The notes under the pieces are model-generated. The model ran no database searches. It saw nothing but the letters and a program-made list of their open reading frames with translations, and had not been told where the DNA came from. This document shows positions 1 through 13,998 of a DNA stretch of 13,998 nucleotides, in pieces. Position numbers and translations under genes: made by a program. Numbering within the stretch: position 1 is the first letter of the stretch; each line of letters begins with the position of its first letter. This DNA comes from Candidatus Nanohaloarchaea archaeon (GTDB lineage: Archaea > Nanohalarchaeota > Nanosalinia > Nanosalinales > Nanosalinaceae), in NCBI GenBank assembly GCA_046539225.1, contig JBKHHG010000019.1, positions 1 through 13,998 on the forward strand. The letters are read 5' to 3'.

Positions 1-324
1 ACCTGGCTCGCACCAGAACAAGTCCGCATTTTACCTGTAACCGACGAAAACCAGGAGTACGCCGAGAAAGTTAAGGAAGAATTAAGCGAGTTCCGAGTAG
101 AGATTGAAGACAGAAGCTGGACCGTCGGGAAGAAGATTCAGGCCGCGCACGACGACAACGTTCCTTACATGCTGATTTTAGGGGATGAAGAGGAGGAAGC
201 AGAGACTATCTCAGTCAGAGACAGGGAAGAACGCGAAGAGAAAGAAATAGATGTGGAAGAGTTCAGGGAGGCCTTGAAGGAAGAGGTTGAGGAGAAGAGT
301 TTGGAGCCAGAGTTTTTGAGGTAA
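1..324 (+). CDS. thrS: Threonine--tRNA ligase, C-terminal anticodon-binding domain (5' partial)
   Basis: Manual translation of frame 1: [24 protein letters not shown]...[40 protein letters not shown]..., stop TAA at 322-324. WLAPxQV and KKI..A....[11 protein letters not shown] are ThrRS hallmarks. Not in the supplied ORF track. Confidence 0.92.
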
Positions 325-332
325 TAGCTGGC

Positions 333-992
333 TTAATCTGTTTTATTTTTTCCTTTTCTGCCTGGAAACATACTGGATGTTAGGCTGGCTGCTACAATGC
401 CGGCCATATTGGCAGGGAAGAAGAGGCCTTCAATGCCAGCCTTGATAGATGCCTCTGAGGCCTCCAGATTGGCTTTGTAAAGGTCCTGGAGACTGTAGTC
501 ATCTGTCTTATCTGCATTAAGTTTGTACATTACTTCTTCTCCATCTCGTATCTCGCCAGCCAAGATTTCCTCTGTCTCTCTTCCAGAGAAGTGAACATCT
601 TCAAGACCTTCTTCACTAATTCCTCTCCAGTCGTAGTCAGTGTTTGCCACATATTCAAGTCTTTCGAGGTCATGGCGTTCCAGAAACTCTTTTAGCGGCT
701 CCGGGTTAATCGCTTCGCTGTCTTTAACTCTGGCCTCCATCAGTTTTTCACCGTTTTCGTTGACCGCTTTAAAAGTAGAGTCGCCGTTCTCCAGATACTC
801 GTGGATAACTATATCTTCCTGATCAGGGCCTCTCTGCATTTCGATTTCAGCGTGAGAAGCAACATTGAAGATGCTGTGGGGGAATATATTGCTGCTGACT
901 GAGCCTTTCGAACTCCACAGGCCTTCGCTTAACTGGCGGTACTCGGCTTCTTCAAGATCTGCTTCAGACAGGTTTCGGGTATCTGCAGCCAT
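333..992 (-). CDS. Hypothetical acidic protein (219 aa) with a hydrophobic C-terminal segment and basic tail
   Basis: Long ORF filling the gap between thrS and rps19e, D/E-rich like its neighbours. TATA-like TTAAAA about 29 nt upstream on the minus strand. No family recognised. Confidence 0.75.
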   Translation of the reverse strand: MAADTRNLSEADLEEAEYRQLSEGLWSSKGSVSSNIFPHSIFNVASHAEIEMQRGPDQEDIVIHEYLENGDSTFKAVNENGEKLMEARVKDSEAINPEPLKEFLERHDLERLEYVANTDYDWRGISEEGLEDVHFSGRETEEILAGEIRDGEEVMYKLNADKTDDYSLQDLYKANLEASEASIKAGIEGLFFPANMAGIVAASLTSSMFPGRKGKNKTD

Positions 993-1081
993 TAACTATT
1001 TCTTTATAAATGAAATTTTAACAGTTTTACGCTGGTTTCCCGGGTTTTTGATTTAAAAGCTTTTATTCACCGTGTAGATGT
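993..1081. promoter_or_regulatory. Divergent AT-rich promoter region (orphan gene / rps19e operon)
   Basis: TTTAAAA at 1052-1058 begins 30 nt before the rps19e ATG. Minus-strand TTAAAA (1021-1016) begins 29 nt before the ATG at 992. Confidence 0.6.
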
Positions 1082-1486
1082 ATGACTACAGTATATGATG
1101 TAGAGGCTGAACCCTTGATAATGGAAGTTGCGGAAGATCTGGAAGAGGAGTTTGATGCGCCTGACTGGACGAATTATGCGAAGACTGGCGCCAAGAAGGA
1201 TACTCCCCCTCAGCAGGATAACTGGTACCATATCAGGAGTGCAGCCATCTTGAGAAGGATTTACACTGATGGGCCTCTCGGGGTTTCCCGTCTGAGAACC
1301 ATCTTTGGAGACAGAAAGCACAGCGGTCACAAGCCTGAGCACCATGGAAAGGCCTCAGGCAAGGTTATCAGGACGGCTCTCCAAAACCTGGAAGAAGCAG
1401 GTTTGGTTGAAGAAGAGGAAGGCGAGGGACGGATGATCACTGAAGAAGGTCAGGCCTTGCTGGATGAGAAAGCAGCCGAAGTATGA
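1082..1486 (+). CDS. rps19e: 30S ribosomal protein S19e
   Basis: MTTVYDV, PDW..YAKTG, PP.Q.NWYHIRSAAILRRIY..GPLGVSRLRT, ASGKVIRTALQNLEEAGLV, GRMIT.EG..LLD are S19e motifs. Confidence 0.98.
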   Translation: MTTVYDVEAEPLIMEVAEDLEEEFDAPDWTNYAKTGAKKDTPPQQDNWYHIRSAAILRRIYTDGPLGVSRLRTIFGDRKHSGHKPEHHGKASGKVIRTALQNLEEAGLVEEEEGEGRMITEEGQALLDEKAAEV

Positions 1487-1785
1487 ACGATATAGAGGAT
1501 ATAAAGAAGGAGCAGATGGAGGAAATCCAGGAGCAACAGGAAGAAGAACAGGGACAAAAGGAACAGTTGAAAGAGGCCGCGAAGCAGCACCTCACGAAGG
1601 ATGCTAGGTCAAGGCTTGAAAACGTCAGGGCGGCCAGACCGGATCAGGCCTCGAGCATTGAGCAGCAGATCGCCCGGCTTGGAATGACGGGCAGGATCAA
1701 CGGAAAGATCGATGATTCCGAGTTAAAGCAGATGTTGAAGAAGTTGAATCAAAAAGGTTCCGACTATAGTATTAAACACAGGTAA
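1483..1785 (+). CDS. PDCD5/TFAR19-like double-stranded DNA-binding protein
   Basis: LTKDARSRLENVRAARPD...IEQQI..L...GRI.GKIDDSELKQMLKKL...YSIKHR. Conserved position downstream of rps19e in archaea; ATGA overlap. Confidence 0.93.
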   Translation: MNDIEDIKKEQMEEIQEQQEEEQGQKEQLKEAAKQHLTKDARSRLENVRAARPDQASSIEQQIARLGMTGRINGKIDDSELKQMLKKLNQKGSDYSIKHR

Positions 1786-1794
1786 CGATAATTT

Positions 1795-1968
1795 ATGGCA
1801 TCTAACAAGTCAAAGGGTAAGAAGAAGAGGCTGGCAAACGCCGCAGAGACCGCGAAATCTGCTCCTCGCTGGGTTTCGCTCAAGGTTTTCGGCATGGAAA
1901 GAGCCAGGAAGAAGTCGATAAAACCTCGGAAGAGCCGTCACTGGCGGCGTAACGACACCGATGAGTAA
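1795..1968 (+). CDS. rpl39e: 50S ribosomal protein L39e (57 aa)
   Basis: Manual translation: MASNKSKGKKKRLANAAETAKSAPRWVSLKVFGMERARKKSIKPRKSRHWRRNDTDE*. KKKRLA, PxWV and RHWRR motifs; canonical position before rpl31e with TAATG overlap. Not in the ORF track. Confidence 0.95.
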   Translation: MASNKSKGKKKRLANAAETAKSAPRWVSLKVFGMERARKKSIKPRKSRHWRRNDTDE

Positions 1969-2378
1969 TGCGTAGAACTGTCAATCTCTCAAAACTGAAG
2001 GCCTCTCCGCAGCAGGAGAGAGCCAAGAAAGCTGTTTCTCTTCTGAGAGAAAGCTTTGAGGAAGAAGTCAAGATCTCCAGAGAGCTTAACGAGGAGATCT
2101 GGAGCAGGGGAATCCACAATCCTCCGACAAAGGTCACGGTCGAAAATGAGGGGGGAACTCTTTACCCTGCGGAAAGCTTTGAAGCAGGGACAGAAACTGA
2201 AGAAGAGGAAGAGGACGAGGCCTCCACGGATTACACGGATACTGTATCTGGAAACATCAGCGAGGTAAAGGACAGGGTTGGAGAGCTTGAAGATCCTGAC
2301 TTTGAGGCCTTGATCGAGGCAGAGGAAGACGGTAAAGACCGGAAGACCTTGAAGGAATGGCTTGAGTCCCAGAAATGA
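1968..2378 (+). CDS. rpl31e: 50S ribosomal protein L31e with acidic linker and extra C-terminal domain
   Basis: R.VNL, RAKKAV..LR, VKIS.ELNE.IWSRGI.NPP.KV.V are L31e motifs in about the first 68 aa. Synteny between rpl39e and eIF6. Confidence 0.92.
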   Translation: MRRTVNLSKLKASPQQERAKKAVSLLRESFEEEVKISRELNEEIWSRGIHNPPTKVTVENEGGTLYPAESFEAGTETEEEEEDEASTDYTDTVSGNISEVKDRVGELEDPDFEALIEAEEDGKDRKTLKEWLESQK

Positions 2379-3010
2379 TTGAGAAATACAGTTTCCGCGG
2401 CTCCGAGAACACGGGTTTCTACACTGTCGCGACTAACTCCTACGTAATCGTGCCTCCGGGCTATGAAGAGGCGGGTTTTTTTGGGCAGGAGGTCGTTGAG
2501 TCAAAGGTTGGGAAGACAAGTCTTGTAGGGCTTTTCGCCGCGGGAAACTCTAACGGGGTTCTGCTTCCGAGAGAGCTTTCAGGTATTGAAAGGGAGAACT
2601 TTGAGGCCTCTGATGTAGAGTTTCACGTCGTGGACTCCAGCTTTAACGCGTTCGGCAATCTGGTTCTCTGCAACGACTCCGGCGCCTTGATCAGCGAAAA
2701 ACTTTCCGACCACAGGGAAGAGATCGAGGACGCGCTCGGTGTTAAGACCCGGGTAGGAATGATTCAAGGCCTGAATCCTGGTGTTTCAGCTGTCGCAAAC
2801 TCGAATGGTGCGGTTATCCACAGGGACGCATCCGAGGAAGACGCTTTGAAGGTTAAAGAGGTTTTAGGCCTTGAGGATGTGGATATCGGCACGGTCAACA
2901 TGGGATCGCCTTTCATCGGTTCCGGGGCCGCGGCCAACGACAAGCATCTTCTCACAGGTGAGAACACGACCGGGCCTGAGATCGGACGTTTCGACAGGAC
3001 GATGTTCTGA
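2375..3010 (+). CDS. eif6: Translation initiation factor 6 (aIF6)
   Basis: SLVG.FAAGNSNG.LLP, NAFGNLVLCND.GALI, G.SAVANSNGAVIH, IGTVNMGSPFIGSG.AAN, G..TTGPEI.R. Confidence 0.97.
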   Translation: MIEKYSFRGSENTGFYTVATNSYVIVPPGYEEAGFFGQEVVESKVGKTSLVGLFAAGNSNGVLLPRELSGIERENFEASDVEFHVVDSSFNAFGNLVLCNDSGALISEKLSDHREEIEDALGVKTRVGMIQGLNPGVSAVANSNGAVIHRDASEEDALKVKEVLGLEDVDIGTVNMGSPFIGSGAAANDKHLLTGENTTGPEIGRFDRTMF

Positions 3011-3016
3011 CATCGG

Positions 3017-3025
3017 TTTTTTATT
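3017..3025 (+). promoter_or_regulatory. T-tract/TATA element (likely eIF6 terminator and/or promoter of the pilus platform genes)
   Basis: TTTTTTATT just after the eIF6 stop and 28-30 nt before the ATG at 3048, the same spacing seen at other genes in the window. Confidence 0.5.
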
Positions 3026-3047
3026 CCAGTTTAAACAGCTTTAATGT

Positions 3048-3905
3048 ATGGACTACAGGGCGCCTGAGGCGGTCGAGCCATATATTCTGCCGCTCGCCGA
3101 GAGCATCCACGGGTTTCTACCCGGGATGGAGGACGACATAAGAGGGGCGAGGATGGAGAACGACCCTGAGGAGTACCTTGCTTTCTCGCTTTTCAAGTCT
3201 CTCCAGGCTGGCGCAGTTCTACTGTTTTCGGGCATCGCTCTGGGATATATTTTCGACATAGAGATGTTTATAACCGGCAGCTTGATCGTCTCCCCTGTTG
3301 TAACAGGTTTCGTGTTTATTTCGATTGCTTTCAGGCCTAAAATCAAGGCTAAACGTATTTCGCGAAACATCGAGAAAAATCTGCCGTATGCTTTACGGCA
3401 TATGCTTATAGAAGTGTCTTCCGGTATTTCTCTTTACCAGGCGATGGTCTCTGTCAGTCAGGACTACGAGGAGGCCTCGGACGAGTTTGAAAAGATTGTA
3501 TCTGATATACAGGGCGGGAAGTCGCAGGTTGAGGCCCTGGAAGACTCTATTTCGAGGACTCAGAGCCAGATGTATCGGAGGACGATGTGGCAGTTGATTA
3601 ACTCGATCAAGTCTGGTGCAAACGTCACCACGACCCTGGAGACTCTTGTAGATACTATTGTAGAGGAGCAGAAGATAAGGGTTAAGAACTACGGTGAGGA
3701 CCTGAATCCTTTTGTGTTGATGTACCTGATGCTTGCGGTAATATTTCCAAGCCTTGGCGTTACATTGATGATCGTGCTTTCATCTTTTACCGGTATGGGG
3801 ATTGAGGGCAATATGTTCTACTTTTTGATTGGAGGCCTGATCATCTTCCAGATATTTTTCCTGAACCTGATCAAGTCGAGAAGGCCTGAGGTGAGAGCCG
3901 CATGA
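3048..3905 (+). CDS. Type IV pilus/archaellum platform membrane protein (T2SS-F, TadB/TadC/PilC/FlaJ family)
   Basis: Two N-terminal TMs, IEKNLPYALRHM..EVSSG.SL.QAM..V, Y.EAS.EF..IV.DI..G, AL.....RT.S, then C-terminal TMs with IFPSLG. Confidence 0.92.
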   Translation: MDYRAPEAVEPYILPLAESIHGFLPGMEDDIRGARMENDPEEYLAFSLFKSLQAGAVLLFSGIALGYIFDIEMFITGSLIVSPVVTGFVFISIAFRPKIKAKRISRNIEKNLPYALRHMLIEVSSGISLYQAMVSVSQDYEEASDEFEKIVSDIQGGKSQVEALEDSISRTQSQMYRRTMWQLINSIKSGANVTTTLETLVDTIVEEQKIRVKNYGEDLNPFVLMYLMLAVIFPSLGVTLMIVLSSFTGMGIEGNMFYFLIGGLIIFQIFFLNLIKSRRPEVRAA

Positions 3906-4885
3906 ACAGGTTCTACCAGAAGCTTCCGGACCAGTACACTGACAGGGTGGAGAGCGAGGCCAGCTACGCGAAGATCGACAACTACGACAGCATAGTCCTG
4001 AAGGGCTTCATCACGTTTTTCACGGCCTCGATCGCAACGGGCTTCTTCCTGATGCCTTACAGTCTCCACCTTAACATCGGTGTAGGCCTGTTGATCGGTC
4101 TGGTAACCGGTTTCGGGGTTCCGCTGACATTTATATCTTTGAGGGCTGAGAGACGAAAGAACAATATCGAGGATGTACTGCCCGATGCGTTGAGGCTTGT
4201 CTCTTCAAACACTCGTTCAGGGCATACACTGGAGAAGGCCTTCCTGCTGAGTGCGAGGGATGAGTTCGGGCCTCTTGCCGAGGAGCTCAGGCTGACAGCG
4301 ATGGAGATGTACGGCGGTACCTCTGTAGAGGAGTCGCTGGAGAAGCTTGAGTTACGTGTAAAGTCCGAGCTTTTCCAGGAGACCCTGAAGCTTTTGATCG
4401 ACGGTATAAAGGCGGGCGGGGACAAAGCCGATCTTCTGGAGTCAAGCGCCGAGGATATAAGGAACTCTATGGAGATCAGGGAGGAGATCCAGTCCAGCAT
4501 CAGGATGTACGTAATCTTTATCATGATGGTGGCGGTAGCAGGCGCACCGGTGCTTTTCTCAGTCAGTGTCTACATGGCCGACACCACGACAGAGATGTGG
4601 GAAGGTTCGGAGATGGATATGGAGGGGCCTGGCGGCGGTATGGGAAGCCAGATAGGTTTCGATCTCTCTTTCCAGGCGCCTCAGGTCGATGTTGGAATGT
4701 TTGAAAACTTTGCGTACATGGCGATTATAACCACAAATACTTTTGCAGCCCTGATAATATCGGAGATACGGAACGGCAACGTCAAAAACGGTATAAAGTA
4801 CGCTCCGATCTTCGCCACTGTATCCGTCCTGATATTCATAGGCGTGAACTCGGGAATAGCCACGGCTTTAAGCGGGATAGGCTAG
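3902..4885 (+). CDS. Second T2SS-F domain platform membrane protein (TadC/PilC family)
   Basis: RR..NIE.VLPDALRL.SSN.RSG.TLEKA...SAR.EFGPLAEEL, G.S.EE.L..L..RVKS, GG..ADLLE..AEDIR, several TMs; ATGA overlap with its paralog. Confidence 0.93.
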   Translation: MNRFYQKLPDQYTDRVESEASYAKIDNYDSIVLKGFITFFTASIATGFFLMPYSLHLNIGVGLLIGLVTGFGVPLTFISLRAERRKNNIEDVLPDALRLVSSNTRSGHTLEKAFLLSARDEFGPLAEELRLTAMEMYGGTSVEESLEKLELRVKSELFQETLKLLIDGIKAGGDKADLLESSAEDIRNSMEIREEIQSSIRMYVIFIMMVAVAGAPVLFSVSVYMADTTTEMWEGSEMDMEGPGGGMGSQIGFDLSFQAPQVDVGMFENFAYMAIITTNTFAALIISEIRNGNVKNGIKYAPIFATVSVLIFIGVNSGIATALSGIG

Positions 4886-4896
4886 AGGCCTAAAGG

Positions 4897-4935
4897 TTTT
4901 TTATAGGGAAAACCCTAATTACAGCATGTCAGGTG
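4897..4935 (+). promoter_or_regulatory. Putative own promoter (TTTATA 4900-4905) and SD-like AGGTG (4931-4935) of the pilin gene
   Basis: TATA box consensus in the intergenic spacer. AGGTG ends 12 nt before the ATG at 4948. Confidence 0.5.
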
Positions 4936-4947
4936 TTAAACCTAACA

Positions 4948-5421
4948 ATGAACGAACATCATTTTGACAAGACAAAAGGTCAGTCAGCCATCGAGTACCT
5001 GATGACGTACGGATGGATGCTTCTCGTAGTAGCAATCGTAGGAGGAGCAATCTTCGCAACAGTCCAGGGCCAGTGCACACAGTCAACCTCCGGATTCACA
5101 GGAGGAGACGTAATAGTAGAGAACTTCGGGCTTGATGGAGAAGACAATTTACAGATGGAAGTCAGAAACGGAGGATCAGACACTCTCACCGTCAAAAATG
5201 CCTCTGTAATAAACGAAGATGATCCATCAGAGAACCTAGAGAACACAGACGATACCGAGGTAGACGTTGGAAATTCTGAAACCATCACCTTGAGTAATAC
5301 TGATGGAATGGAATCTTCTGATGGATGTAACGACTTTGATCTTGAGTTCACCTATGACATGGGAGAACTAACTGATCAAACGACTTCAGGAACACTGACT
5401 GACAGCATTGAGTTCAGCTAA
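4948..5421 (+). CDS. Archaeal type IV pilin, probable major pilin (class III signal peptide)
   Basis: KTKG|QSAIEYLMTYGWMLLVVAIVGGAIFATV: KG cleavage site, Q+1, E+5, hydrophobic helix, then a beta-rich acidic domain with two Cys. ATG 4948 preferred over GTG 4933. 'Major' is inferred from its own promoter and SD-like site. Confidence 0.88.
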   Translation: MNEHHFDKTKGQSAIEYLMTYGWMLLVVAIVGGAIFATVQGQCTQSTSGFTGGDVIVENFGLDGEDNLQMEVRNGGSDTLTVKNASVINEDDPSENLENTDDTEVDVGNSETITLSNTDGMESSDGCNDFDLEFTYDMGELTDQTTSGTLTDSIEFS

Positions 5422-5433
5422 AAGAACTCACAC

Positions 5434-5454
5434 ATTTCCCATCTTTTTTCTTTT
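5434..5454 (+). terminator. Pyrimidine/oligo-T tract after the pilin gene
   Basis: ATTTCCCATCTTTTTTCTTTT between convergent genes, typical of an archaeal intrinsic terminator. Confidence 0.55.
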
Positions 5455-6605
5455 CAGCTTACAAGGCCTGAAAGACTCCACTCATCGATACTGTCATCAC
5501 CGGTATCCTCGCTTAACATGAAGTCAGGCCTGAAATTGCCGTAGTCTCCTGTAGTTACCCCGGAGATCTCAACTAATGCAGGAGAACTGGAGTTGTAGTA
5601 GAGGTAGGCCTCGTTAGGCTCGCTTGAACCTCCTTCATCTGTGAAAGTGGTTAGGCCTCCTGACTCTGCGGAGAAGCTGCCTTCCATCCGGTTGAGGACT
5701 CCGGGGGCATTAGAGTTTTCAAGGTAACAGTTTTCATCCATCACCTTTCTGAAATGAGAATTCCAGGCCTCGCCGTTGTCAAGTATCAGGGATGCGCCGT
5801 CTGTCACGTTCAGCTCCAGGCCTTCTACAGTGGCGTAGTCACCGGAGGGAATCGTGCCTTCTTCCGTCACGACACCTGAGAAGTCGTCGGGAATCGAACC
5901 GTACTCCGATACGTCTTCCGTAACAAGTATTCTCGAGCGTGAGTGATCGACTTCTCCTATCCGGGGTTCTACTGCGGCGTAGCCGTGGGCGACTTCAGAG
6001 CCTGTGGCTGTTCCAAGAAGTTCAGCGGGTTTTTCAAAGCCGCAGTAGCTGTACTTTGGAGTGAAGGAGCCGCCGCTCGCATTCTCAAGCAGAGGGTCAG
6101 GGCCTTTCAATCCTTCAATTCCTTGGATAGTGCCGTTAAAGCTGTAGCGGGTAGATCTCGGGCTGTAGGTGAAGTTGTAGTTTAGATCAGCTGAGGCCTG
6201 GAGTTTAAGGCCTGGTTCGAGGCTGTAGTTGCCGTGGACGTACTCGAGGCTGTGACCTCTCTGGCTGTACATCGGTTCGAGGCCTGAGCTCCAGGAGCTG
6301 TAGTTTACGTAGTTCATTTCTGTGCCGTTGAACTCTCCAGCGTCGAAATCAATTGAGGCCTCCGCATCGTTTACGAATCCGTTGTCGACTATGTACTGGT
6401 TTGAGGCCTTGAGGTAGTCGGAGGCGGAGATTGCAACGCCTTTCTTGAAAGCTGATTTCAGGCTTTGGGCGTCTGCGTCCGCTACTTCTGAGCCTTTAAC
6501 CTGGATCTCCGCTTCTTGCGGTATCGAGTTCAGTGGAACCATGAAGAGGAGGAAAAGCACTGTCACCGCAAAGATTGCGAAAGGTGTGTGAGCCATTCCT
6601 TTCAT
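5454..6605 (-). CDS. Large pilin-like exported protein (383 aa), candidate pilus tip/adhesin
   Basis: MKG|MAHTPFAIFAVTVLFLLFMV short class III-like leader. Last gene of the pilin-like operon; two Cys and seven N-x-S/T sequons. Confidence 0.75.
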   Translation of the reverse strand: MKGMAHTPFAIFAVTVLFLLFMVPLNSIPQEAEIQVKGSEVADADAQSLKSAFKKGVAISASDYLKASNQYIVDNGFVNDAEASIDFDAGEFNGTEMNYVNYSSWSSGLEPMYSQRGHSLEYVHGNYSLEPGLKLQASADLNYNFTYSPRSTRYSFNGTIQGIEGLKGPDPLLENASGGSFTPKYSYCGFEKPAELLGTATGSEVAHGYAAVEPRIGEVDHSRSRILVTEDVSEYGSIPDDFSGVVTEEGTIPSGDYATVEGLELNVTDGASLILDNGEAWNSHFRKVMDENCYLENSNAPGVLNRMEGSFSAESGGLTTFTDEGGSSEPNEAYLYYNSSSPALVEISGVTTGDYGNFRPDFMLSEDTGDDSIDEWSLSGLVS

Positions 6606-7063
6606 TCTGCTACCACCACTGTGAAACGAGCAGCTCCTTCATCTCCAGGGACCACAAAGCTTGATGCACTGGTTTCATTCGCGTCTACAGGGATTATTTC
6701 TTCCCCTTCAATGTAAAGGCCTGACCTCCTGGGAAAAGTATCGAGATAGTTCCCCGCCAGTTCCTCGGGCGACGAGTCCTCGTTGTAGAGTTTCAGGATC
6801 GCTCTGTCAATGCTGAACCCTCTTTCAACCTCTGTAGACTCCACCAGGTTGTCCCTGTAGGATGCGTTCACTGCTGAAAGGCCTTCACGCCTCATCAGGT
6901 ATGAGATGTCGGCCGCCTGGGCTGCAGACCTGTCGTAACTGACCTCATCGCCTGAAACTCCTTTTGAAATCTGGGAGGTAGAGCCGATCAGTCCCGCAGC
7001 AAGGCCTATGATCATTAATCCTATGATGGCATCCATCGAAAAGTAGAATCCTTTCAGCGCCAT
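6602..7063 (-). CDS. Minor pilin-like protein
   Basis: MALKG|FYFSMDAIIGLMIIGLAAGLI class III-like leader; overlaps both neighbours. Confidence 0.8.
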   Translation of the reverse strand: MALKGFYFSMDAIIGLMIIGLAAGLIGSTSQISKGVSGDEVSYDRSAAQAADISYLMRREGLSAVNASYRDNLVESTEVERGFSIDRAILKLYNEDSSPEELAGNYLDTFPRRSGLYIEGEEIIPVDANETSASSFVVPGDEGAARFTVVVAE

Positions 7064-7533
7064 ACCGCGTACCTCACCTCTACATGGTTCAGATCGCCTG
7101 ATCTGTTGATTAAAGCGTTTCGCCGGAAGCTGAATACCTGGTCGGAGTCAGGGTCTTGCCCGATGCTGTAGAGCACATCCTCGCCTACAATCTCCAGGTT
7201 AAAGCCCGAGGCCTTTAGCAGGGATCTCTGGCGTTGGAAATCAAGTTTTTCAAACTCTTCAATCTTTTCCGGTTCGAGAACGTAGGGTTCACTCGTCAGT
7301 CCCAGGGTTTCGACGTTGCTGCTGTTCCAGTCCTCAGGTACTCCAGGCCTGTTCAGAATAGATTTCATGGTTCTCTCTCCCTGAGTGTACAGGTTTCGGT
7401 CTCTCTGGTCTGCGATCTGTGCGTTGACTATAGAGTTCCAGGAGATCAGGAAGATTGAAAGCATGAAACCCATTATCACTATGCTGGCGAGAAAGTCCGG
7501 TGCAAAGGCCTGACCCTTACTGCGGAACAACAT
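7054..7533 (-). CDS. Minor pilin-like protein
   Basis: Start revised to ATG 7533: MLFRSKG|QAFAPDFLASIVIMGFMLSIFLI; contains PG.PEDW.....LGL. Confidence 0.8.
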   Translation of the reverse strand: MLFRSKGQAFAPDFLASIVIMGFMLSIFLISWNSIVNAQIADQRDRNLYTQGERTMKSILNRPGVPEDWNSSNVETLGLTSEPYVLEPEKIEEFEKLDFQRQRSLLKASGFNLEIVGEDVLYSIGQDPDSDQVFSFRRNALINRSGDLNHVEVRYAVWR

Positions 7534-7909
7534 GCACCGACCCGTTGTTGAAGACCGTGAAAGGCCCATTCTCGGATTTTAACGATACGTCCCTGCCTGT
7601 GTAGCGTGGAGTGGCTGTCGAGCTCGCGGACTCTGACTCTGCCACCGCAAAACTGTCGGAAACATTCACTGTATAGCTGTCGCCGAAGACTTCGCGGGGA
7701 AGCGAAAAGTTTCTCTCGTAGCCGGTTCCGTAGGCCTGAGCGTTTTCGACTTCGAACGCCACTTTCGAGGCCACGGCATCTATCCTGGTTGTCTCCCTGT
7801 AGTCAAATGTTTCAACCTGTTTGTCCGCGGCGTTGGTAAAAAGGACTGCCAGGACTATCATCATAACCGAAAAGTAGATGAAGAACTCGAGCGATACCTG
7901 GCCCTTCAT
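7517..7909 (-). CDS. Minor pilin (class III signal peptide)
   Basis: MKG|QVSLEFFIYFSVMMIVLAVLF matches the KGQxSxEF class III motif. Confidence 0.87.
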   Translation of the reverse strand: MKGQVSLEFFIYFSVMMIVLAVLFTNAADKQVETFDYRETTRIDAVASKVAFEVENAQAYGTGYERNFSLPREVFGDSYTVNVSDSFAVAESESASSTATPRYTGRDVSLKSENGPFTVFNNGSVHVVPQ

Positions 7910-7945
7910 ACAGTCAAGTTGGACAGGCCTGAATAAAAAATAAAC

Positions 7946-8353
7946 TTACCTGGCGGAAAGGTTTACCTGATTTTTCCAGGCCTCTACTTCTACCTGTTGC
8001 TCGCCTTTCTTCATCGGGAGGGATGCGGTATTCAGCTCTGCGTCCACTATACGCGAAAAGTTCGAGGCTCTTCCCGATACATTCCGGGTGTACACAACTG
8101 AGTTACCGACTGTCCTGGCTTTTTCAATGGATGATGGTACCGAGATAGTTGCGGTGTCGCGGGCGGGCTCTCCCATGGCATCGACTCTTTCAATCTCCTG
8201 CTTTAAGTCGTCGAGGGAGGCCTGGAACCTGGAGAGTTCGGAGCTCTGCGATGTCTCGAACAGGCTGTCCTGTGACTGGATTATGAAAGGTGAGGCAAGC
8301 AGGGTCGCCATTGCCACGATCGTCACAAACTCCATCGAGCTCTGTGCCTTCAT
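7946..8353 (-). CDS. Minor pilin (class III signal peptide), paralog of 8350..8766
   Basis: MKA|QSSMEFVTIVAMATLLASPF. Confidence 0.87.
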   Translation of the reverse strand: MKAQSSMEFVTIVAMATLLASPFIIQSQDSLFETSQSSELSRFQASLDDLKQEIERVDAMGEPARDTATISVPSSIEKARTVGNSVVYTRNVSGRASNFSRIVDAELNTASLPMKKGEQQVEVEAWKNQVNLSAR

Positions 8354-8766
8354 GGTTCCGCCCTCGATATGTTTACCCTGTCACGGTAGGCCTCAACGTT
8401 CAAGGTGTATACTCCCTGCTCCGTCGGCATGTTTTCAGCGTTGATTTTCTGGTCGAATATCCTGGTGAAGTTGGCCTCCTCGCCTGATCTCTCCAGCGAG
8501 TAGGTGATTGCCCGGTCCTCTGAAACCTGGAAGTCTTCCATGTCACGAGTCAATCTAAGCTCTACCTGTTTCCTCGCCGGCTTATCCATCGCCCCTACCT
8601 TCCTGACCGTTCTCGCTACATCATCGAGAGAGGCCTGTATCTCCGCCACTTCGCTTCCGAACCCTATGTCGATCATCATGCTCTGGCTCTCCACAACGAA
8701 AGGTGCGGCAAGCACAAGCGCTATACCTACCACGGTTATGAACTCTACGGAGGCCTGCGCCTTCAT
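8350..8766 (-). CDS. Minor pilin (class III signal peptide), first gene of the operon
   Basis: Start revised to ATG 8766: MKA|QASVEFITVVGIALVLAAPF. The upstream 29 codons of the track ORF cover the promoter. Confidence 0.87.
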   Translation of the reverse strand: MKAQASVEFITVVGIALVLAAPFVVESQSMMIDIGFGSEVAEIQASLDDVARTVRKVGAMDKPARKQVELRLTRDMEDFQVSEDRAITYSLERSGEEANFTRIFDQKINAENMPTEQGVYTLNVEAYRDRVNISRAEP

Positions 8767-8865
8767 ACCTTTGTTTTTGGTCCACGGGTTAAAATGAGTT
8801 TGTCGATACCACCCTGAGATTACAACGCCCGATTTATATGGAGGCCGACGCAATTCAAAGGTATG
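8764..8865. repeat. Perfect 10-bp inverted repeat CATACCTTTG (8764-8773) / CAAAGGTATG (8856-8865)
   Basis: Read directly from the sequence; each arm contains the start codon of one of the divergent genes. Confidence 0.85.
8767..8862. promoter_or_regulatory. Divergent promoter between the minor pilin operon and ppsA
   Basis: TTTATA at 8833-8838 begins 30 nt before the ppsA ATG. Minus-strand TTTTAA (8794-8789) begins 28 nt before ATG 8766. Confidence 0.65.
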
Positions 8866-11400
8866 GGCACCGGCAACGTACTCTGGTTTAACGAGATCAA
8901 CGCGGACGACAAATCGAAAGTAGGCGGTAAAAGCGCAAACCTTGGAGAGCTGCAGAACCAGGTTGATGTACCGGTTCTACCGGGTTTTGCAACAACTGCA
9001 GAGGCCTACGACCGGTTTATACATGATACAGAGCTTAAAGACAAGATTGAAAGGATTTTAGATGATCTCGACAACGATGACGTGAAAGATCTCCAGATGC
9101 GTGGAGAACAGATCCGTGCCCATATTAAAGAAGCGGATATGCCCCAGGATCTGAAAGATGACTTCGCAGAGGCCTACGAACAGCTTGAGGAAAATCTTGG
9201 AGTAGAAAACCCTGAAGTAGCGGTTCGTTCATCCGCCACGGCCGAGGACCTTCCCGGAGCATCTTTCGCAGGCCAGCAGGAAACCTACCTGAACGTCTCC
9301 GGCAAGCAAGATCTTATCAAGAGGATCAAGGACTGTTTCGCGTCTCTTTTCACCAATAGGGCGATTTCATATCGTGAAGACAAGGGTTTCTCCCACTTCG
9401 ATGTTAAACTGAGCGCAGTAGTTCAAAAAATGGGTCGCAGCGATATCGGTGCTGCAGGCGTCATGTTCACCATGGATCCTGACTCAGGGTTCGACAACGT
9501 TGTAACAATCAATGGCAGCTACGGCCTGGGAGAATACGTCGTCCTGGGAGAAGTCAACCCTGACGAGTTCACCGTCTTCAAGGAGAACCTCGGCATTATC
9601 GAGAAGAACGTCGGAGAGAAAGAGGTTAAACTGGTTAGAAACAAGGATCATGAGCAGGGAGATGACCACGAAAACATAGAGGAAAAAGTGCCGAAGAGCG
9701 ACAGAGAAAAGTTCTGCATAACAGACAACCAGGTCCAGGAGCTTGCGAAATACGCCCTGAAAATCGAGGAGCACTACGGGAAGCCGATGGATATTGAATG
9801 GGTGCTGGACGGCGAAACGAAAGAGCTTTACATCGTCCAGGCAAGACCGGAAACAGTACAGGCAGAGAAAGACGAAAACGTGATCGAAGACCACAAGCTG
9901 AAAGAGGAGTCAGAAGTACTGCTTGAAGGAAGCGCGATCGGCTCCAAAATCGGCTCAGGCAAGGCCCACGTCCTCAACTCGCCGAAACAGATCGACCAGT
10001 TCGAAGAAGGAGAAGTTTTAGTAACAGACATGACGGACCCTGACTGGGAGCCGATCATGAAGAAAGCTGGCGCAATAATAACAAACAAAGGAGGAAGAAC
10101 CAGTCACGCAGCAATCGTATCCAGAGAACTCGGAGTACCGGCAGTAATCGGAACTGAGAACGCTACCTCGACTATAGCCGATAAGAAATCGGTGACAGTC
10201 GACTGTTCAAGTTCGACAGGAAAGATCTGGGATGGCGAGATCGAGTTTGAGGTGGAGGAGCACCATCTCGATGATATCCCTGAGACAGAGACCGATGTAC
10301 AGGTTAACATTGGGGAGCCAAGCGAGGTCTTCCACGTCGCTCAGCTACCGGTAGAAGGTGTAGGCCTTGCCAGGGAAGAGTTTATTATAAGCTCGCATGT
10401 AGGAGAACATCCTCTCAAGCTTATCGAAGAAGGACGCGAGGACGAATACGTCAGGGCTCTGCGTTCAGGCCTTGGAAAGATCGGGGCCGCATTCTATCCT
10501 GACCAGGTTGTTGTGAGGCTCAGTGACTTCAAGTCTGACGAGTACGCCGACCTAAAAGGCGGCGAAAACTATGAACCGGACGAGGCCAATCCTATGCTCG
10601 GGTTCAGAGGCGCCTCACGTTACTATGATCCTGAGTTCTCAAAGGCCTTTGAGCTTGAATGCAAGGCCTTGAGGCAGGCGATCGACGATCTCGAGCTTGA
10701 CAACTTTACCATAATGGTGCCGTTCTGCCGGACCGTAGAAGAAGGGAAAAATGTTCGGGCCAAGATGAAGGAGTACGGCCTTGACCAGGGCGATATCGAG
10801 GTCTACATGATGGCAGAGATCCCTACCAACATTATAAGAGCCGAGGAGTACGCGGAAGTATTCGACGGCTTCTCGATAGGGACAAACGACCTGACCCAGA
10901 TGACTCTCGGGGTCGACCGGAACAGCGACAAACTCAAGGACCTGTTCGATGAGAGAGATCCGGCGGTGAAGAAATCGGTGTCCAAGCTTATCGACAGAGC
11001 CCACAGAAAAAATAAACACGTTGGAATCTGCGGAGACGCACCTTCAACGCACGACGGCTACGCAGAGTTTTTAGTGGGCGAGGGTATCGACGCCATAAGT
11101 GTTTCACCGGATGTCGCACTTGAGACAATCCTGAAAGTAGCAGAGGCAGAAGAACAGAAACCAGAGGAAGAGTTCAGCGAAAGATTTTCACGCGAAAAGA
11201 TCGGGGAAGCCGCAGGGGAGATCTACGACGCGTTGAACGAGCACGGTGAGGCGAAGGCCTCAGCCCTGAAGGACTACACATCCCGTTTAAACGATTCGCT
11301 GAGGGAACAGGCGCTTGGATGGCTTGCAAGAGAGGAGAAAGTCGAGGTCGACCGGGATGAAGGCGAGGTAAAGTACAAACTGAAAGAAGAAAAGGCCTGA
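8863..11400 (+). CDS. ppsA: Phosphoenolpyruvate synthase (pyruvate,water dikinase) with C-terminal winged-helix extension
   Basis: VGGKSANLGEL, VAVRSSATAEDLPGASFAGQQETYLNV, PMDIEW, YIVQARPETV, phospho-His motif GGRTSHAAIVSRELG, EANPMLGFRGASRY, DGFSIGTNDLTQ, VGICG. Confidence 0.98.
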   Translation: MGTGNVLWFNEINADDKSKVGGKSANLGELQNQVDVPVLPGFATTAEAYDRFIHDTELKDKIERILDDLDNDDVKDLQMRGEQIRAHIKEADMPQDLKDDFAEAYEQLEENLGVENPEVAVRSSATAEDLPGASFAGQQETYLNVSGKQDLIKRIKDCFASLFTNRAISYREDKGFSHFDVKLSAVVQKMGRSDIGAAGVMFTMDPDSGFDNVVTINGSYGLGEYVVLGEVNPDEFTVFKENLGIIEKNVGEKEVKLVRNKDHEQGDDHENIEEKVPKSDREKFCITDNQVQELAKYALKIEEHYGKPMDIEWVLDGETKELYIVQARPETVQAEKDENVIEDHKLKEESEVLLEGSAIGSKIGSGKAHVLNSPKQIDQFEEGEVLVTDMTDPDWEPIMKKAGAIITNKGGRTSHAAIVSRELGVPAVIGTENATSTIADKKSVTVDCSSSTGKIWDGEIEFEVEEHHLDDIPETETDVQVNIGEPSEVFHVAQLPVEGVGLAREEFIISSHVGEHPLKLIEEGREDEYVRALRSGLGKIGAAFYPDQVVVRLSDFKSDEYADLKGGENYEPDEANPMLGFRGASRYYDPEFSKAFELECKALRQAIDDLELDNFTIMVPFCRTVEEGKNVRAKMKEYGLDQGDIEVYMMAEIPTNIIRAEEYAEVFDGFSIGTNDLTQMTLGVDRNSDKLKDLFDERDPAVKKSVSKLIDRAHRKNKHVGICGDAPSTHDGYAEFLVGEGIDAISVSPDVALETILKVAEAEEQKPEEEFSERFSREKIGEAAGEIYDALNEHGEAKASALKDYTSRLNDSLREQALGWLAREEKVEVDRDEGEVKYKLKEEKA

Positions 11401-11415
11401 AGGCCTCAAACCTTT

Positions 11416-11820
11416 TTATTTAAAATCTATTATTCTTTTATCTACTCTTTCGCCGTTGTGCTGTGTGACAACAGTGTAACGACCATTCAAGGGCTGTGTT
11501 GAGGCCTTGTAGACTCCTGTGGCGTAGCAGTTTTCTTCAAAGTTTTCAGGTTCTTGTTCATTCACTGACTTGACGTTTAACTTTACTGTGTCGCCTGAAC
11601 GGCTGTAGCTGTACCTCATGTCGGCCTCGGTTGACTGCACCGGGAAGAAACCCGAGTAGAAAAGCTTGTTATCCTTTACGGAGACCTGGAAGTCTTCGGC
11701 GCGGTCCTCTCTGCATTCGGTTTCAAGGTCTGTAAAGTTGATGTCTTCTTCAGCTGCCGCCAGAACTCCTGCCAGCCCAGCCATTAAGATTATCGCCGCA
11801 AACGCCCAGAACTTTGACAT
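11416..11820 (-). CDS. Small secreted hypothetical protein, beta-rich, two Cys
   Basis: MSKFWAFAAIILMAGLAGVLAAA signal peptide. ATG 11820 lies 30 nt from a minus-strand TTTAAA (11850-11845); GTG 11826 is an alternative start. Confidence 0.8.
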   Translation of the reverse strand: MSKFWAFAAIILMAGLAGVLAAAEEDINFTDLETECREDRAEDFQVSVKDNKLFYSGFFPVQSTEADMRYSYSRSGDTVKLNVKSVNEQEPENFEENCYATGVYKASTQPLNGRYTVVTQHNGERVDKRIIDFK

Positions 11821-11915
11821 ATTCACTATTGGGAGACAAAAGGATTTAAACTCTGGGTAGTGACAACCAGTATTGTTGAGGATTTATTAAGAAGTGAGCC
11901 CCAATCTTGGATGTA
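11821..11915. promoter_or_regulatory. Divergent promoter (secreted protein / minD)
   Basis: TTTAAA 11845-11850 (minus-strand gene) and TTTATTAA 11883-11890, beginning 33 nt before ATG 11916. Confidence 0.55.
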
Positions 11916-12698
11916 ATGAGTGACGCACGGATCATAGGCCTTATATCAGGGAAGGGTGGTGTAGGTAAGACCACCTTGACAGTCAACCTCGGTATAGGCC
12001 TGAAGCAGAGAGACGCCGAGGTAACGCTTGTAGACGCGGACTTCTCCGCAAGCAACCTTGGAGTCTACATGGGAAGGTACGACCACCCTGTAAAGATCCA
12101 GAAAGTTCTGCACGGCGAGGCCTCGGTCGAGCAGGCGATCTTCAGGCATCCGACAGGCGTAAAGGCGATCACCTCAAGCAACGAGATAAACCAGACCGAG
12201 CCAGATACCTCAAAGCTTAGAGAGATACTTGAAAAAGCCGGGGAAGGCTCCGACTACGTTCTCGTGGACTGCCCTCCAGGCCTGAACAACACGGTCGAAA
12301 CAATAATCGAGGCCTGCGACGAACTCATGATCGTGACGATGCCGACACAGACCTCAAGCCTGAACGCGGCCCAGATAATAGAGAAATCCAAGGATATGAG
12401 GAAGCCGATACTTGGCACAGTCCTCAACAAGATAGAAAACAACCCTGAAAAAGAACTTGTGGAACGCGAAGTCGAGATGATGACCGAAAGCCATATCCTG
12501 GGCAAGATCCCCTACGATGAAGAAATGAAGGAAGCCTTATTTGAAAACACTCCGCTCGTGCTCTACAACGAGTACAGCGAGGCCTCAATAGAGATACAGA
12601 GGCTTGCAGCCAACCTGGAAGGAGAACAGTTCGACGAACCCAGGTTTGCAAAGCTGAAAAGAGGCCTCAGAAACGTCAAGAAAAATATTTCACGTTAA
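11916..12698 (+). CDS. minD: MinD/ParA-family ATPase
   Basis: Deviant Walker A SGKGGVGKTT, LVDADF..SNL, DYVLVDCPPGL, G.VLNK, LG.IPYD, basic amphipathic C-terminus RFAKLKRGLRNV. ATG 11916 preferred over TTG 11907. Confidence 0.9.
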   Translation: MSDARIIGLISGKGGVGKTTLTVNLGIGLKQRDAEVTLVDADFSASNLGVYMGRYDHPVKIQKVLHGEASVEQAIFRHPTGVKAITSSNEINQTEPDTSKLREILEKAGEGSDYVLVDCPPGLNNTVETIIEACDELMIVTMPTQTSSLNAAQIIEKSKDMRKPILGTVLNKIENNPEKELVEREVEMMTESHILGKIPYDEEMKEALFENTPLVLYNEYSEASIEIQRLAANLEGEQFDEPRFAKLKRGLRNVKKNISR

Positions 12699-12863
12699 AG
12701 CCGCCATCACGGACGCCACACCCGCCAGGCCTAAAACAGCGAATGTCAGTGCTGCGGCTCCAGAGTACCTGAACCTTCCGTCTTCTTTCCTGTAGAGATA
12801 AGCTGTTAAAAACGCTGCCATTATTGAAAGCAGAAAAGCTGTGTAAGAACCGAGAAGTATCAT
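12690..12863 (-). CDS. Small membrane protein (57 aa, two TM helices)
   Basis: Manual translation: MILLGSYTAFLLSIMAAFLTAYLYRKEDGRFRYSGAAALTFAVLGLAGVASVMAALT*. Fills the gap, has the GTATG start context and a charged loop between two hydrophobic helices. Not in the ORF track. Confidence 0.72.
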   Translation of the reverse strand: MILLGSYTAFLLSIMAAFLTAYLYRKEDGRFRYSGAAALTFAVLGLAGVASVMAALT

Positions 12864-12888
12864 ACCGAAAGAGTGAAAAGATAAATAT

Positions 12889-13998
12889 TCAGTGGAGAGC
12901 GTCTCGGTGAAGCTTCAGGCCTGACTCCGTGTCGAACTCCTCGCCGCAGCTGTCGCAGACGAATACATCCGGATCCCCTGATTCTTCCTCGCCTTCTTCC
13001 TCTGAACTTTCATCACTTTCTTTATCTTCAGAGGCCTCTGAATCGGTTGAAGGCTCTCCCGAATCTTCTTTTACTTTTCCAGGGTCGACTTTCTGGGGTG
13101 AGACATCGGGTTTCTGGACCCTTCCGTTTCCAGCGGGTCTGTTCATCCCGTTCATCCTGCCATTCATTCTATCATCGCCGCCTTCCTTTCTCTTTCTGAC
13201 CGCGGCCGCAAGGATCACGCCGAAAACCAGTATAAGGCCGAGCGCAAGGTTCATATCGCTCTGGCTTTCGATGAACTCTCCTGTCGCCCTTGCAATATCT
13301 TCAGTCGATCCAAGATCTGAAGAGTTTTCCGAATCCGAATTAGAATCATTACTGCTTTCTTCACCCTCAAGATCTACATCCTCACTGAATGAAACAGAAG
13401 TAGTATCAGGACCTGCCTCCACATCCTCACCGTCTGAAACACCTGAGGCCTCAAAACTGATCGTCGGCGGCGACCTCAAATCCTCATCCAGATTCAAAGT
13501 CAAAACCACATCCTGAGAATCACCTGCGTCCAATGAATCAATACTCTCAGGACTTAACTCATAATCGCTTTCATCAACTCCCGAAACATCAAACTCAATA
13601 TCCTCTGCCGAGGCCTGACCAGTATTCTCAACACTGTACTCCACATCATAATCCTCACCAAGTGTTACCTCAGGACTGCTCTCAGAACTAACAGAAAGGC
13701 CTGTATCATAGAAGACTTCGATTGCCTCAGACTGGCTTTCCTCGAAGCTCTCGTAAGGATTCTTTTCGGCGGTGAACTCCACGTCATACATTCCGGCATC
13801 CTCAACATTGATGGAAACCTCAAACTCTCCGTCCTCACCCGTAGAGGCGTCCTCGCTGACTGAGTTGTCCTCGCTATTCAGGTCTAACTCTACATCGGCA
13901 TCCTCAACAGGATCCCCTGTATTATCATTGATCACATTTCCAGAGACGGTGATCTCGTCTCCAGAGGATACACTTGAACTGCTTACATCCAAACTATC
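12889..13998 (-). CDS. Membrane-anchored surface protein (Ig-like/CARDB-like domains, TM, acidic tail, C2H2 zinc finger); 5' partial
   Basis: The frame is open to the window edge. Ig-like segments (GDEITVSGNV....TGDPVEDADV, TGEDGEF; VENTGQASAEDI, IDSLDAGDS..V.LTL), TM NLALGLILVFGVILAAAV followed by RKRK, and terminal FVCDSCGEEFDTESGLKLHRDALH. Confidence 0.85.
   Translation of the reverse strand, partial: DSLDVSSSSVSSGDEITVSGNVINDNTGDPVEDADVELDLNSEDNSVSEDASTGEDGEFEVSINVEDAGMYDVEFTAEKNPYESFEESQSEAIEVFYDTGLSVSSESSPEVTLGEDYDVEYSVENTGQASAEDIEFDVSGVDESDYELSPESIDSLDAGDSQDVVLTLNLDEDLRSPPTISFEASGVSDGEDVEAGPDTTSVSFSEDVDLEGEESSNDSNSDSENSSDLGSTEDIARATGEFIESQSDMNLALGLILVFGVILAAAVRKRKEGGDDRMNGRMNGMNRPAGNGRVQKPDVSPQKVDPGKVKEDSGEPSTDSEASEDKESDESSEEEGEEESGDPDVFVCDSCGEEFDTESGLKLHRDALH

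Follow-up and report, generated by a model that had tools for sequence, protein, structure and literature searches.

AGGCCT is a HIP1-like highly iterated palindrome in nanohaloarchaea of one family

Short palindromes are usually avoided in prokaryotes. HIP1, a highly iterated palindrome (HIP) of cyanobacteria, is the main exception; it is still unexplained and is entangled with DNA methyltransferases. What, then, maintains the six-base palindrome AGGCCT at high density in the DNA of a small, salt-loving, symbiotic archaeon? This question is raised by a stretch of 13,998 nucleotides from Candidatus Nanohaloarchaea archaeon, here called the window. It is contig C19 of genome G000 (606,781 bp, 38 contigs, 82% complete), and the nearest named relatives of its PpsA protein are metagenome-assembled genomes of Nanohaloarchaea, at 78-86% identity. 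An earlier note, made from the sequence of the window alone, had counted about 67 copies of AGGCCT, one per ~210 bp, and had likened them to HIP1. The count was exact. The 67 sites lie between positions 269 and 13702 with a mean spacing of ~210 bp, and 200 dinucleotide shuffles of the window yield 3.79 +/- 1.89 copies on average and 11 at most. We find that AGGCCT is a real, strong and lineage-limited genomic signal. Its explanation is less certain, and we give about even chances to the reading that it is the binding site of a putative dimeric DNA-binding protein.

The enrichment belongs to the full hexamer rather than to GGCC, as the note had proposed. GGCC occurs 103 times in the window, and all flank contexts other than AGGCCT together account for 36 of these. 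Throughout G000, single-flank variants reach 299-438 both-strand counts vs 5,700 for the motif. Sites in the window occupy all three codon phases (AGG-CCT 4, xAG-GCC-Txx 37, xxA-GGC-CTx 23) on both strands, and three are non-coding (4886, 7925, 11401). The signal also extends far beyond the window: G000 carries 2,850 sites, and each of its 38 contigs holds 1.66-5.81 of them per kb. AGGCCT is the commonest hexamer of this genome, with an observed to expected ratio (O/E) of 20.2 under an order 0 model and 16.4 under order 1, and it ranks top by a maximal-order Markov model (z = 32.5). The O/E in genome G010 is 16.3. Genes of G000 were predicted with a simple gene caller (693 or 706 genes, by analysis; some small genes were missed). 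They hold 2,500 sites vs 435 after synonymous shuffling, a 5.7-fold excess, and vs 189 after codon permutation; by frame, 439/912/1149 sites compare with 83/175/176 after synonymous shuffling. Between genes, the O/E lies at 41-59 for G000 and at 40-76 for G010. The suspicion that simple codon bias is insufficient is thus borne out. A dicodon-preserving shuffle, which had been suggested as a possible refutation, is invalid for that purpose, as its very design leaves most sites in place. The proper tests are intergenic counts and shuffling among synonymous codons, and the enrichment passes both.

It is equally clear that the enrichment is genome-wide and is not an assembly artefact, because independent contigs reproduce pieces of the window and eleven other genomes share AGGCCT. 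Contigs of two other runs of one study, one of which may be the source sample, rebuild the window at >99% identity over 1418-6054 (2 differences) and 184-5129 (22 differences). Among the differences between window and rebuilt contigs that are listed (40 of 196), none falls in an AGGCCT site.

The signal acts at the level of DNA. We define an opportunity as a coding position where the protein permits AGGCCT through synonymous change. G000 fills 0.787 of 3,054 opportunities, where background codon use would fill 0.091 (odds ratio 36.9). Strength is nearly constant across genera: G010 fills 0.747 of 4,854 (odds ratio 36.3) and G005, in 40 kb, fills 0.78 of 185. The next-best palindrome in G000 fills only 0.22 of its opportunities. 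Fill per frame is similar (0.85, 0.75, 0.79). Two other genomes give much lower values, 0.239 of 803 in G003 (odds ratio 5.9) and 0.035 of 2,314 in G024 (odds ratio 0.6). The proteins are affected as well. Peptides compatible with the motif occur at 1.81 times the residue-shuffled expectation in G000, 1.71 times in G010, 1.83 times in G005 (part), 1.41 times in G003 and 1.00 times in G024. Since opportunities exceed what a residue shuffle predicts in all of these genomes but G024, their proteins are bent towards AGGCCT. RNA-polymerase loci are too conserved and are therefore uninformative on this footprint.

Spacers are richer in sites than genes, and convergent spacers are the densest, at 11 sites per kb. 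Density dips within 15 bp of start codons and peaks right after stop codons. It is lower in the most conserved genes (3.15 vs ~5.3 per kb). The ribosomal RNA genes show no enrichment (0 and 4 sites in G010 vs 0 and 3 in G024), and island-like DNA is poor in AGGCCT. Contigs C24 and C36 of G000 are motif-poor (2.08 and 1.66 per kb), have lower GC content and are probably recently acquired DNA. The same probably holds for the longest site-free gap of this genome, 2,438 bp at C10:2843-5281, which holds an AbrB-like gene pair.

Whether related nanohaloarchaea share the enrichment has a divided answer. Twelve of the 50 family genomes are carriers (G000, G001, G002, G004, G005, G010, G022, G025, G026, G034, G061, G065), with 2.0-4.7 sites per kb and 4.3-17 times the count of the reversed control word. 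Thirty-six family genomes are low (55-579 sites), as are the 20 genomes from the rest of the order (32-500 sites). Two genomes are intermediate, G003 with 762 sites and G063 with 892 in 1.3 Mb. The latter is a bin of genus g21 whose RadA matches the G010 protein (genus g7) at 92% identity, and it is possibly chimeric. On an RNA-polymerase tree (30 genomes, 1,559 columns, FastTree), the 10 carriers included fall together with G003 in one clade with support 1.0. They share this clade with the low genomes G007, G017, G023 and G024, and support for the nodes inside it is weak. Genus g2 is divided, with two high and four low genomes.

Individual sites are conserved among orthologues. G005 and G025 share 12 of 14 sites at 83.7% nucleotide identity, and 539 of 1,449 aligned sites are common to G000 and G010 at 65% amino-acid identity. 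At the sites of G000, the fraction of opportunities kept is 0.447 in G010 vs 0.338 in G024, at similar protein identity. G003 is losing AGGCCT, and the loss is directly visible at site level. Its sister G002 has 14 sites in the aligned polymerase locus (83.5% identity), and only 3 of them persist in G003; of the 11 sites lost, 10 are filled in at least 2 other congeners. The protein footprint is still present in G003. There is none in G024 or in the low congener G066 (1.06 +/- 0.09 in 40 kb), and for both of these genomes old loss and independent gain are therefore indistinguishable. Where close kin differ in this way, as G002 does from G003 and as G005/G025 do from four congeners, they provide matched pairs of 1-Mb genomes in which a reader of the motif can be sought.

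The fine structure of the signal has two further features. All nine one-mismatch neighbours of AGGCCT are 13-24 times rarer than the motif (240-450 counts vs 5,700), with masked O/E of 0.8-2.3. They are rare alike, and therefore no single-variant repair path would suffice to explain the motif. An origin by Vsr-type single-mismatch repair appears excluded, as no neighbour is strongly depleted and transition neighbours are in excess. The second feature is a short-range exclusion. Pairs of sites 9-20 bp apart are ~40% rarer than expected (48 vs 76.9 in G000, 57 vs 96.7 in G010). Sixty-three control palindromes, pooled over the same distances, give 19 vs 20.1 and 33 vs 30.5, i.e., ratios of 0.95 and 1.08. 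For pairs of opportunities within one gene, the O/E of both being filled rises with distance (9-20, 20-30 and 30-60 bp): it is 0.62, 0.89 and 0.99 in G000 and 0.59, 0.77 and 0.87 in G010.

The earlier note had linked the tag to a methyltransferase, by analogy with HIP1. This link finds no support: no methyltransferase common to carriers exists among the families PF00145, PF01555, PF02086 and PF07669, single-contig genomes included (PF02384 and PF05063 were not searched). Among 10 carriers searched, a C5 methyltransferase was found in G004 only. In the same 10, an N4/N6-beta enzyme was clearly above the cut-off in G022 only, with a marginal 28-bit sum in G026. D12 methyltransferases were found in none of five genomes. 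Strong Eco57I-type matches came from many non-carriers as well as from 4 of 12 carriers. In G010, a scan for motifs revealed no additional intact DNA methyltransferase, and the Eco57I-type copy of this genome is frameshifted. At L084 ~11,230-11,290 (G010:C1 ~491,230-491,290), a frameshift at a run of dinucleotide repeats (read THTHTH), immediately ahead of the NPPY motif, splits a type IIG-like restriction-modification gene of G010. The pattern resembles phase variation, and the G024 homologue is intact at 1,363 amino acids. An M.HaeIII-like C5 methyltransferase beside an NgoPII-family nuclease is found in only two of the 50 family genomes, G024 (L014, G024:C1:840,488-842,407) and G020 (L013). 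From family likeness, this restriction-modification system is predicted to be GGCC-specific. The two genomes, with 97 and 73 AGGCCT sites, are two of the three motif-poorest among 37 family genomes, and the O/E of GGCC in G024 is 0.41. Given this restriction system and the avoidance of GGCC, G024 is an imperfect control. A different word, CTAG, is strongly avoided in G000 (O/E 0.14), where no methyltransferase was found, and mildly in G010 (0.72); it is outside the ten lowest 4-mers in G024 and G003.

We now consider what could maintain the motif. A two-fold symmetric, sequence-specific protein may read the exact 6-bp palindrome by binding at the site, and selection rather than molecular drive would then keep the sites in place. 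Each isolated site would bring a small and similar advantage (log-odds ~3.6). That would suffice to occupy the majority of synonymous positions and, in proteins under loose constraint, to change amino acids as well. As the benefit saturates, a further site no more than about one protein footprint (20-30 bp) away would add less. The role would likely be chromosome organisation or the marking of self DNA, and where the reader is lost or changed, sites would erode over a short evolutionary distance. We count in favour of this reading the high fill in G000, G010 and G005, the likeness of all frames, the enrichment in spacers, the protein footprint, the nine rare neighbours, the exclusion at 9-20 bp and the conserved sites. 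A wider proposal, to which we give somewhat less than an even chance, is that in one clade of DPANN symbionts the chromosome is organised, or marked as self, by a methylation-independent, sequence-specific protein or a host-supplied factor, acting on a 6-bp palindrome every ~200 bp. Such a system would rewrite the proteome and yet be losable within a genus. If true, it would be an archaeal chromatin or self-recognition code of a kind that, to our knowledge, is undescribed, and pairs of carriers and non-carriers would make the HIP1 question directly testable.

Several results weigh against a binding protein. None of eleven candidate readers that were tested in other genomes tracks AGGCCT (most of the remaining genes of a set of 46, which are membrane, metabolic or pilin-like, were not tested there), and an apparent histone outlier proved to be a missed gene call. 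Spacing in G010 shows no period at 4-300 bp. An extended consensus with histone-type phasing was rejected, as most of the preference for A at +3 and of the 10.3-bp A/T wave is common to GC-centred words at large, in G024 as well. The amplitude of the wave is 0.0074-0.0091 around AGGCCT vs 0.0050-0.0055 for other W-SSSS-W words, and the sole remaining weak flank effect is an A at +4 (1.15-1.16 vs 1.04-1.08 in controls). Repair of nearby mismatches, if directed by a site already present, could likewise produce the short-range exclusion. Transition neighbours are in excess at unfilled opportunities (observed vs expected 176 vs 111 in G000, 466 vs 190 in G010 and 425 vs 354 in the control G024; ratios 1.58, 2.45 and 1.20, with 2.10 in G003). 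Transversion neighbours are not (99 vs 129 in G000 and 158 vs 218 in G010, ratios 0.77 and 0.73; 1.14 in G003 and 1.08 in G024). This transition excess speaks against a simple reversible balance of mutation and selection; it points instead to sites that steadily decay and are refilled non-reversibly, or to a recent relaxation.

That last observation would fit a molecular drive without a function of its own, in which repair, recombination or gene conversion between chromosome copies keeps or templates the AGGCCT strand, and sites accumulate until protein constraint stops them. The transition excess fits steady decay with refilling that is independent of mutation class. The nearly equal odds ratios of two genera agree with it, as do the lower density in the most conserved genes, the ribosomal RNA genes without enrichment and the motif-poor island-like DNA. 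However, a drive needs a sequence-specific repair factor, and none was found; RadA type, PolB2 and Endo_dU fail to track AGGCCT. It must also act on all nine neighbours at once, and the motif-specific exclusion at 9-30 bp requires an extra assumption. We regard it as the main rival of the binding-protein reading, though as unlikely. A HIP1-type process coupled to methylation (Elhai's ratchet) could work through a mark whose enzyme belongs to an unrecognised family or is provided in trans by the haloarchaeal host, in which case host switches would account for the patchiness of the distribution. According to the accessible text of PMC4390886, alternate HIPs in cyanobacteria accompany matching methyltransferases, and four HIP1-rich strains lack a recognisable CGATCG methyltransferase. 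It has been suggested that a nanohaloarchaeon exchanged methyltransferases with its host (PMC11001535, in part), and the trait flips within genus g2. Against this stand the C5, N4/N6-beta, D12 and Eco57I-type families, which are not common to carriers. A published nanohaloarchaeal methylome reports only GDGCHC, in a strain that may or may not be a carrier and from a scan for 6-methyladenine and 4-methylcytosine only; neither AGGCCT nor GGCC appears in the main text of PMC11001535, nor GGCC in the accessible part of PMC10266531. The part of an archaeal restriction-modification survey available to us lists no persistent system for DPANN (PMC10609329). Methylation is in our view an improbable cause.

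A DNA-uptake sequence (DUS) or self tag for the import of kin DNA, comparable to those of Neisseria and Haemophilus and already proposed for HIP1, was also among the suggestions of the earlier note. The density, the filling of all frames and the protein footprint resemble those of DUS, type IV pilus-like genes lie in the window, and AGGCCT is present in 2 of 21 spacers (764 bp) of a G010 array of clustered regularly interspaced short palindromic repeats (CRISPR), where ~0.2 are expected from composition. Known DUS are nevertheless 9-12 bp long and non-palindromic. In its classical form the suggestion is unsupported: ComEC is found in none of the 50 family genomes and DprA in none of five, although the search controls matched. 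Nor does the type of pilus ATPase track AGGCCT; it was not found at E<=1e-90 in G005 and G022, which are single-contig carriers. HIP1 is reported, in the part of PMC13756078 available to us, to correlate with secretion and uptake genes. We consider uptake a very doubtful explanation. Codon or dipeptide bias, or an artefact of assembly or library, has practically no chance of being the cause, and we consider it refuted by the excess over synonymous shuffling, the intergenic O/E above 40, the presence of AGGCCT in 12 genomes, the reproduction of the window by independent contigs and the conservation of orthologous sites.

The eleven candidates for a reader, DNA-related or of unknown kind, came from two sources: 46 genes that G000 has in common with G010 and that have a weak match or none in G024 (G010 and G024 being complete genomes), and identity outliers. 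A 289-residue protein beside an AbrB gene was found in one of five genomes, a low one, and Endo_dU in one of five, namely G003. A second B-family polymerase, which we take to be PolB2-like (G000 C22:4894-7384; L093 in G010), has small neighbour genes and is patchy in the family. It was promising in five genomes; family-wide it occurs in 27 of 50, many of them low, and is absent from G022, G034 and G065. A Cdc6 paralogue was present in five of five genomes and does not track the motif. A DnaG-type primase was present in four of five, including the low G023. A SWIM protein occurs in G005 and the low G067 and not in G022. An RHH-like protein occurs in 6 of 50, three of them low; it evolves fast, hence its misses are uninformative. 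Two small proteins were each found in none of five genomes. Family-wide, RadA forms two groups: one is 70-92% identical to the RadA of G010, the other 56-64%. The latter, more divergent group, found in g19, g20, most of g21 and G019, cuts across the polymerase tree. There are 415 G010 genes without a G024 match, of which a selection was scanned: 73 G010 proteins were compared with Pfam (a few with weak G024 matches), and 93 compared with PADLOC gave two weak, irrelevant matches. It is possible that the reader is encoded in the 18% of G000 that the assembly lacks, that it is a very small protein, that carriers and non-carriers share it but differ in its specificity, or that the host supplies it.

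The CRISPR array of G010 (L099 18,759-20,000; G010:C1:798,759-800,182) has a 30-bp repeat, lies beside cas-like genes, and 21 of its spacers were read. Its two AGGCCT-containing spacers are a weak hint that invaders of G010 carry the motif. Three pattern scans yielded no uniformly motif-rich viral contig (80 of 121 loci, and 26 of 26, were examined). The best contig, L390, turned out to hold collagen-like repeats, and one G010 spacer had no exact viral match.

How does AGGCCT compare with known systems? It is a HIP1-like highly iterated palindrome in a nanohaloarchaeon, as the earlier note had claimed: it is more than 10-fold over-represented, it occurs in all frames and in non-coding DNA, and its sites are conserved. 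It is not HIP1 in the strict sense, which is GCGATCGC in cyanobacteria, and no cognate orphan methyltransferase, a further feature of HIPs, was found with it in the four families searched. DUS of Neisseriaceae and Pasteurellaceae are similar in their thousands of copies, which lie in genes at a cost to the protein and are enriched near gene ends; they differ in length and symmetry and in their ComEC-dependent competence. Chi sites of RecBCD and AddAB are likewise over-represented short motifs that mark self DNA and are read by a DNA-processing protein. They are asymmetric, strand-polarised and far sparser, whereas AGGCCT is palindromic and occurs once per ~210 bp. Chi sites are named in the introduction of PMC4390886. 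In the accessible text of PMC4390886 and PMC5861425, HIP1 and alternate HIPs are described as short hyper-abundant palindromes (15-300-fold for HIP1) that lie in all frames and spacers, are kept between relatives, are gained and lost among kin, and are of unsettled function. AGGCCT shares these features. It differs in its archaeal host, its 6-bp length, the lack of a co-occurring methyltransferase in the four families tested, and the lack of a short period in G010 (the period of tens of kb of Xu et al. is outside the range tested). The local exclusion below 30 bp was not met in these parts of the HIP1 accounts. Among the over-represented words that Xu et al. report is CAGGCCTG of Synechococcus sp. 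PCC 6312, which has AGGCCT within it (PMC5861425, in part). The GGCC restriction-modification systems of G024 and G020 would recognise the core of AGGCCT, and they accompany avoidance rather than enrichment. No description of AGGCCT as a motif of nanohaloarchaea or other archaea was found in the open-access PMC and bioRxiv literature, supplements aside. A comparable archaeal signal that is near-constant in three genera and has no recognisable cognate methyltransferase or ComEC separates "HIP" from "methylation". In practice, the density of AGGCCT is a one-word marker for binning carrier lineages and for spotting recently acquired DNA.

The sites of the window are distributed over its genes as follows. 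The 3' end of thrS (1..324, + strand) holds site 269, and a hypothetical gene without family match (333..992, - strand) holds 424, 458 and 919. A block of + strand genes at 1082..3010 comprises rps19e (1350, 1452), a PRK04239 DNA-binding protein (1646), rpl31e (1999, 2218, 2305) and eIF6 (2604, 2767, 2866). A short basic open reading frame at ~1795-1966, between the PRK04239 gene and rpl31e, is probably rpl39e. Two FlaJ/UpsF-like pilus platform genes (3048..4885, + strand) contain 3333, 3472, 3833, 3882, 4084 and 4236, and the non-coding site 4886..4891 stands immediately 3' of a stop codon. The next gene (4933..5421, + strand) is labelled pilin-like from its N-terminus, with no NCBIfam match; it has 0 sites and lies in a gap from 4892 to 5463. 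Six genes with hydrophobic N-termini (5454..8766, - strand) carry 5464, 5526, 5606, 5653, 5765, 5818, 6194, 6208, 6280, 6356, 6404, 6717, 6879, 7002, 7209, 7345, 7506, 7732, 7978, 8218, 8388, 8631 and 8751, and the non-coding site 7925..7930 lies in a tandem spacer. The region 3048-8766 as a whole is a type IV pilus-like locus, with the two platform genes and several pilin-like genes, and is syntenic in G010 and G024. The pilus ATPase of G000 is on a separate contig, C8, beside a winged-helix gene.

The gene for phosphoenolpyruvate synthase, ppsA (8863..11400, + strand), has sites at 9002, 9170, 10362, 10467, 10643, 10664, 11255 and 11393. The longest stretch of the window without AGGCCT (9176-10361) falls within its conserved core. 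Two sites 8 bp apart (11393..11406) mark its end: 11393 adjoins the ppsA stop codon, and 11401 is non-coding, in a convergent spacer. The remainder (11416..13998) holds a hypothetical gene on the - strand (11502), a minD-like ATPase gene (11936, 11996, 12118, 12278, 12310, 12580, 12662), a small open reading frame on the - strand (12727) and a truncated membrane protein gene on the - strand (12917, 13032, 13446, 13611, 13697). Relative to the window, contigs of X1 and X2 both have one additional base after 4883, at the stop codon before site 4886, and both have a 3-base insertion variant at 13024.

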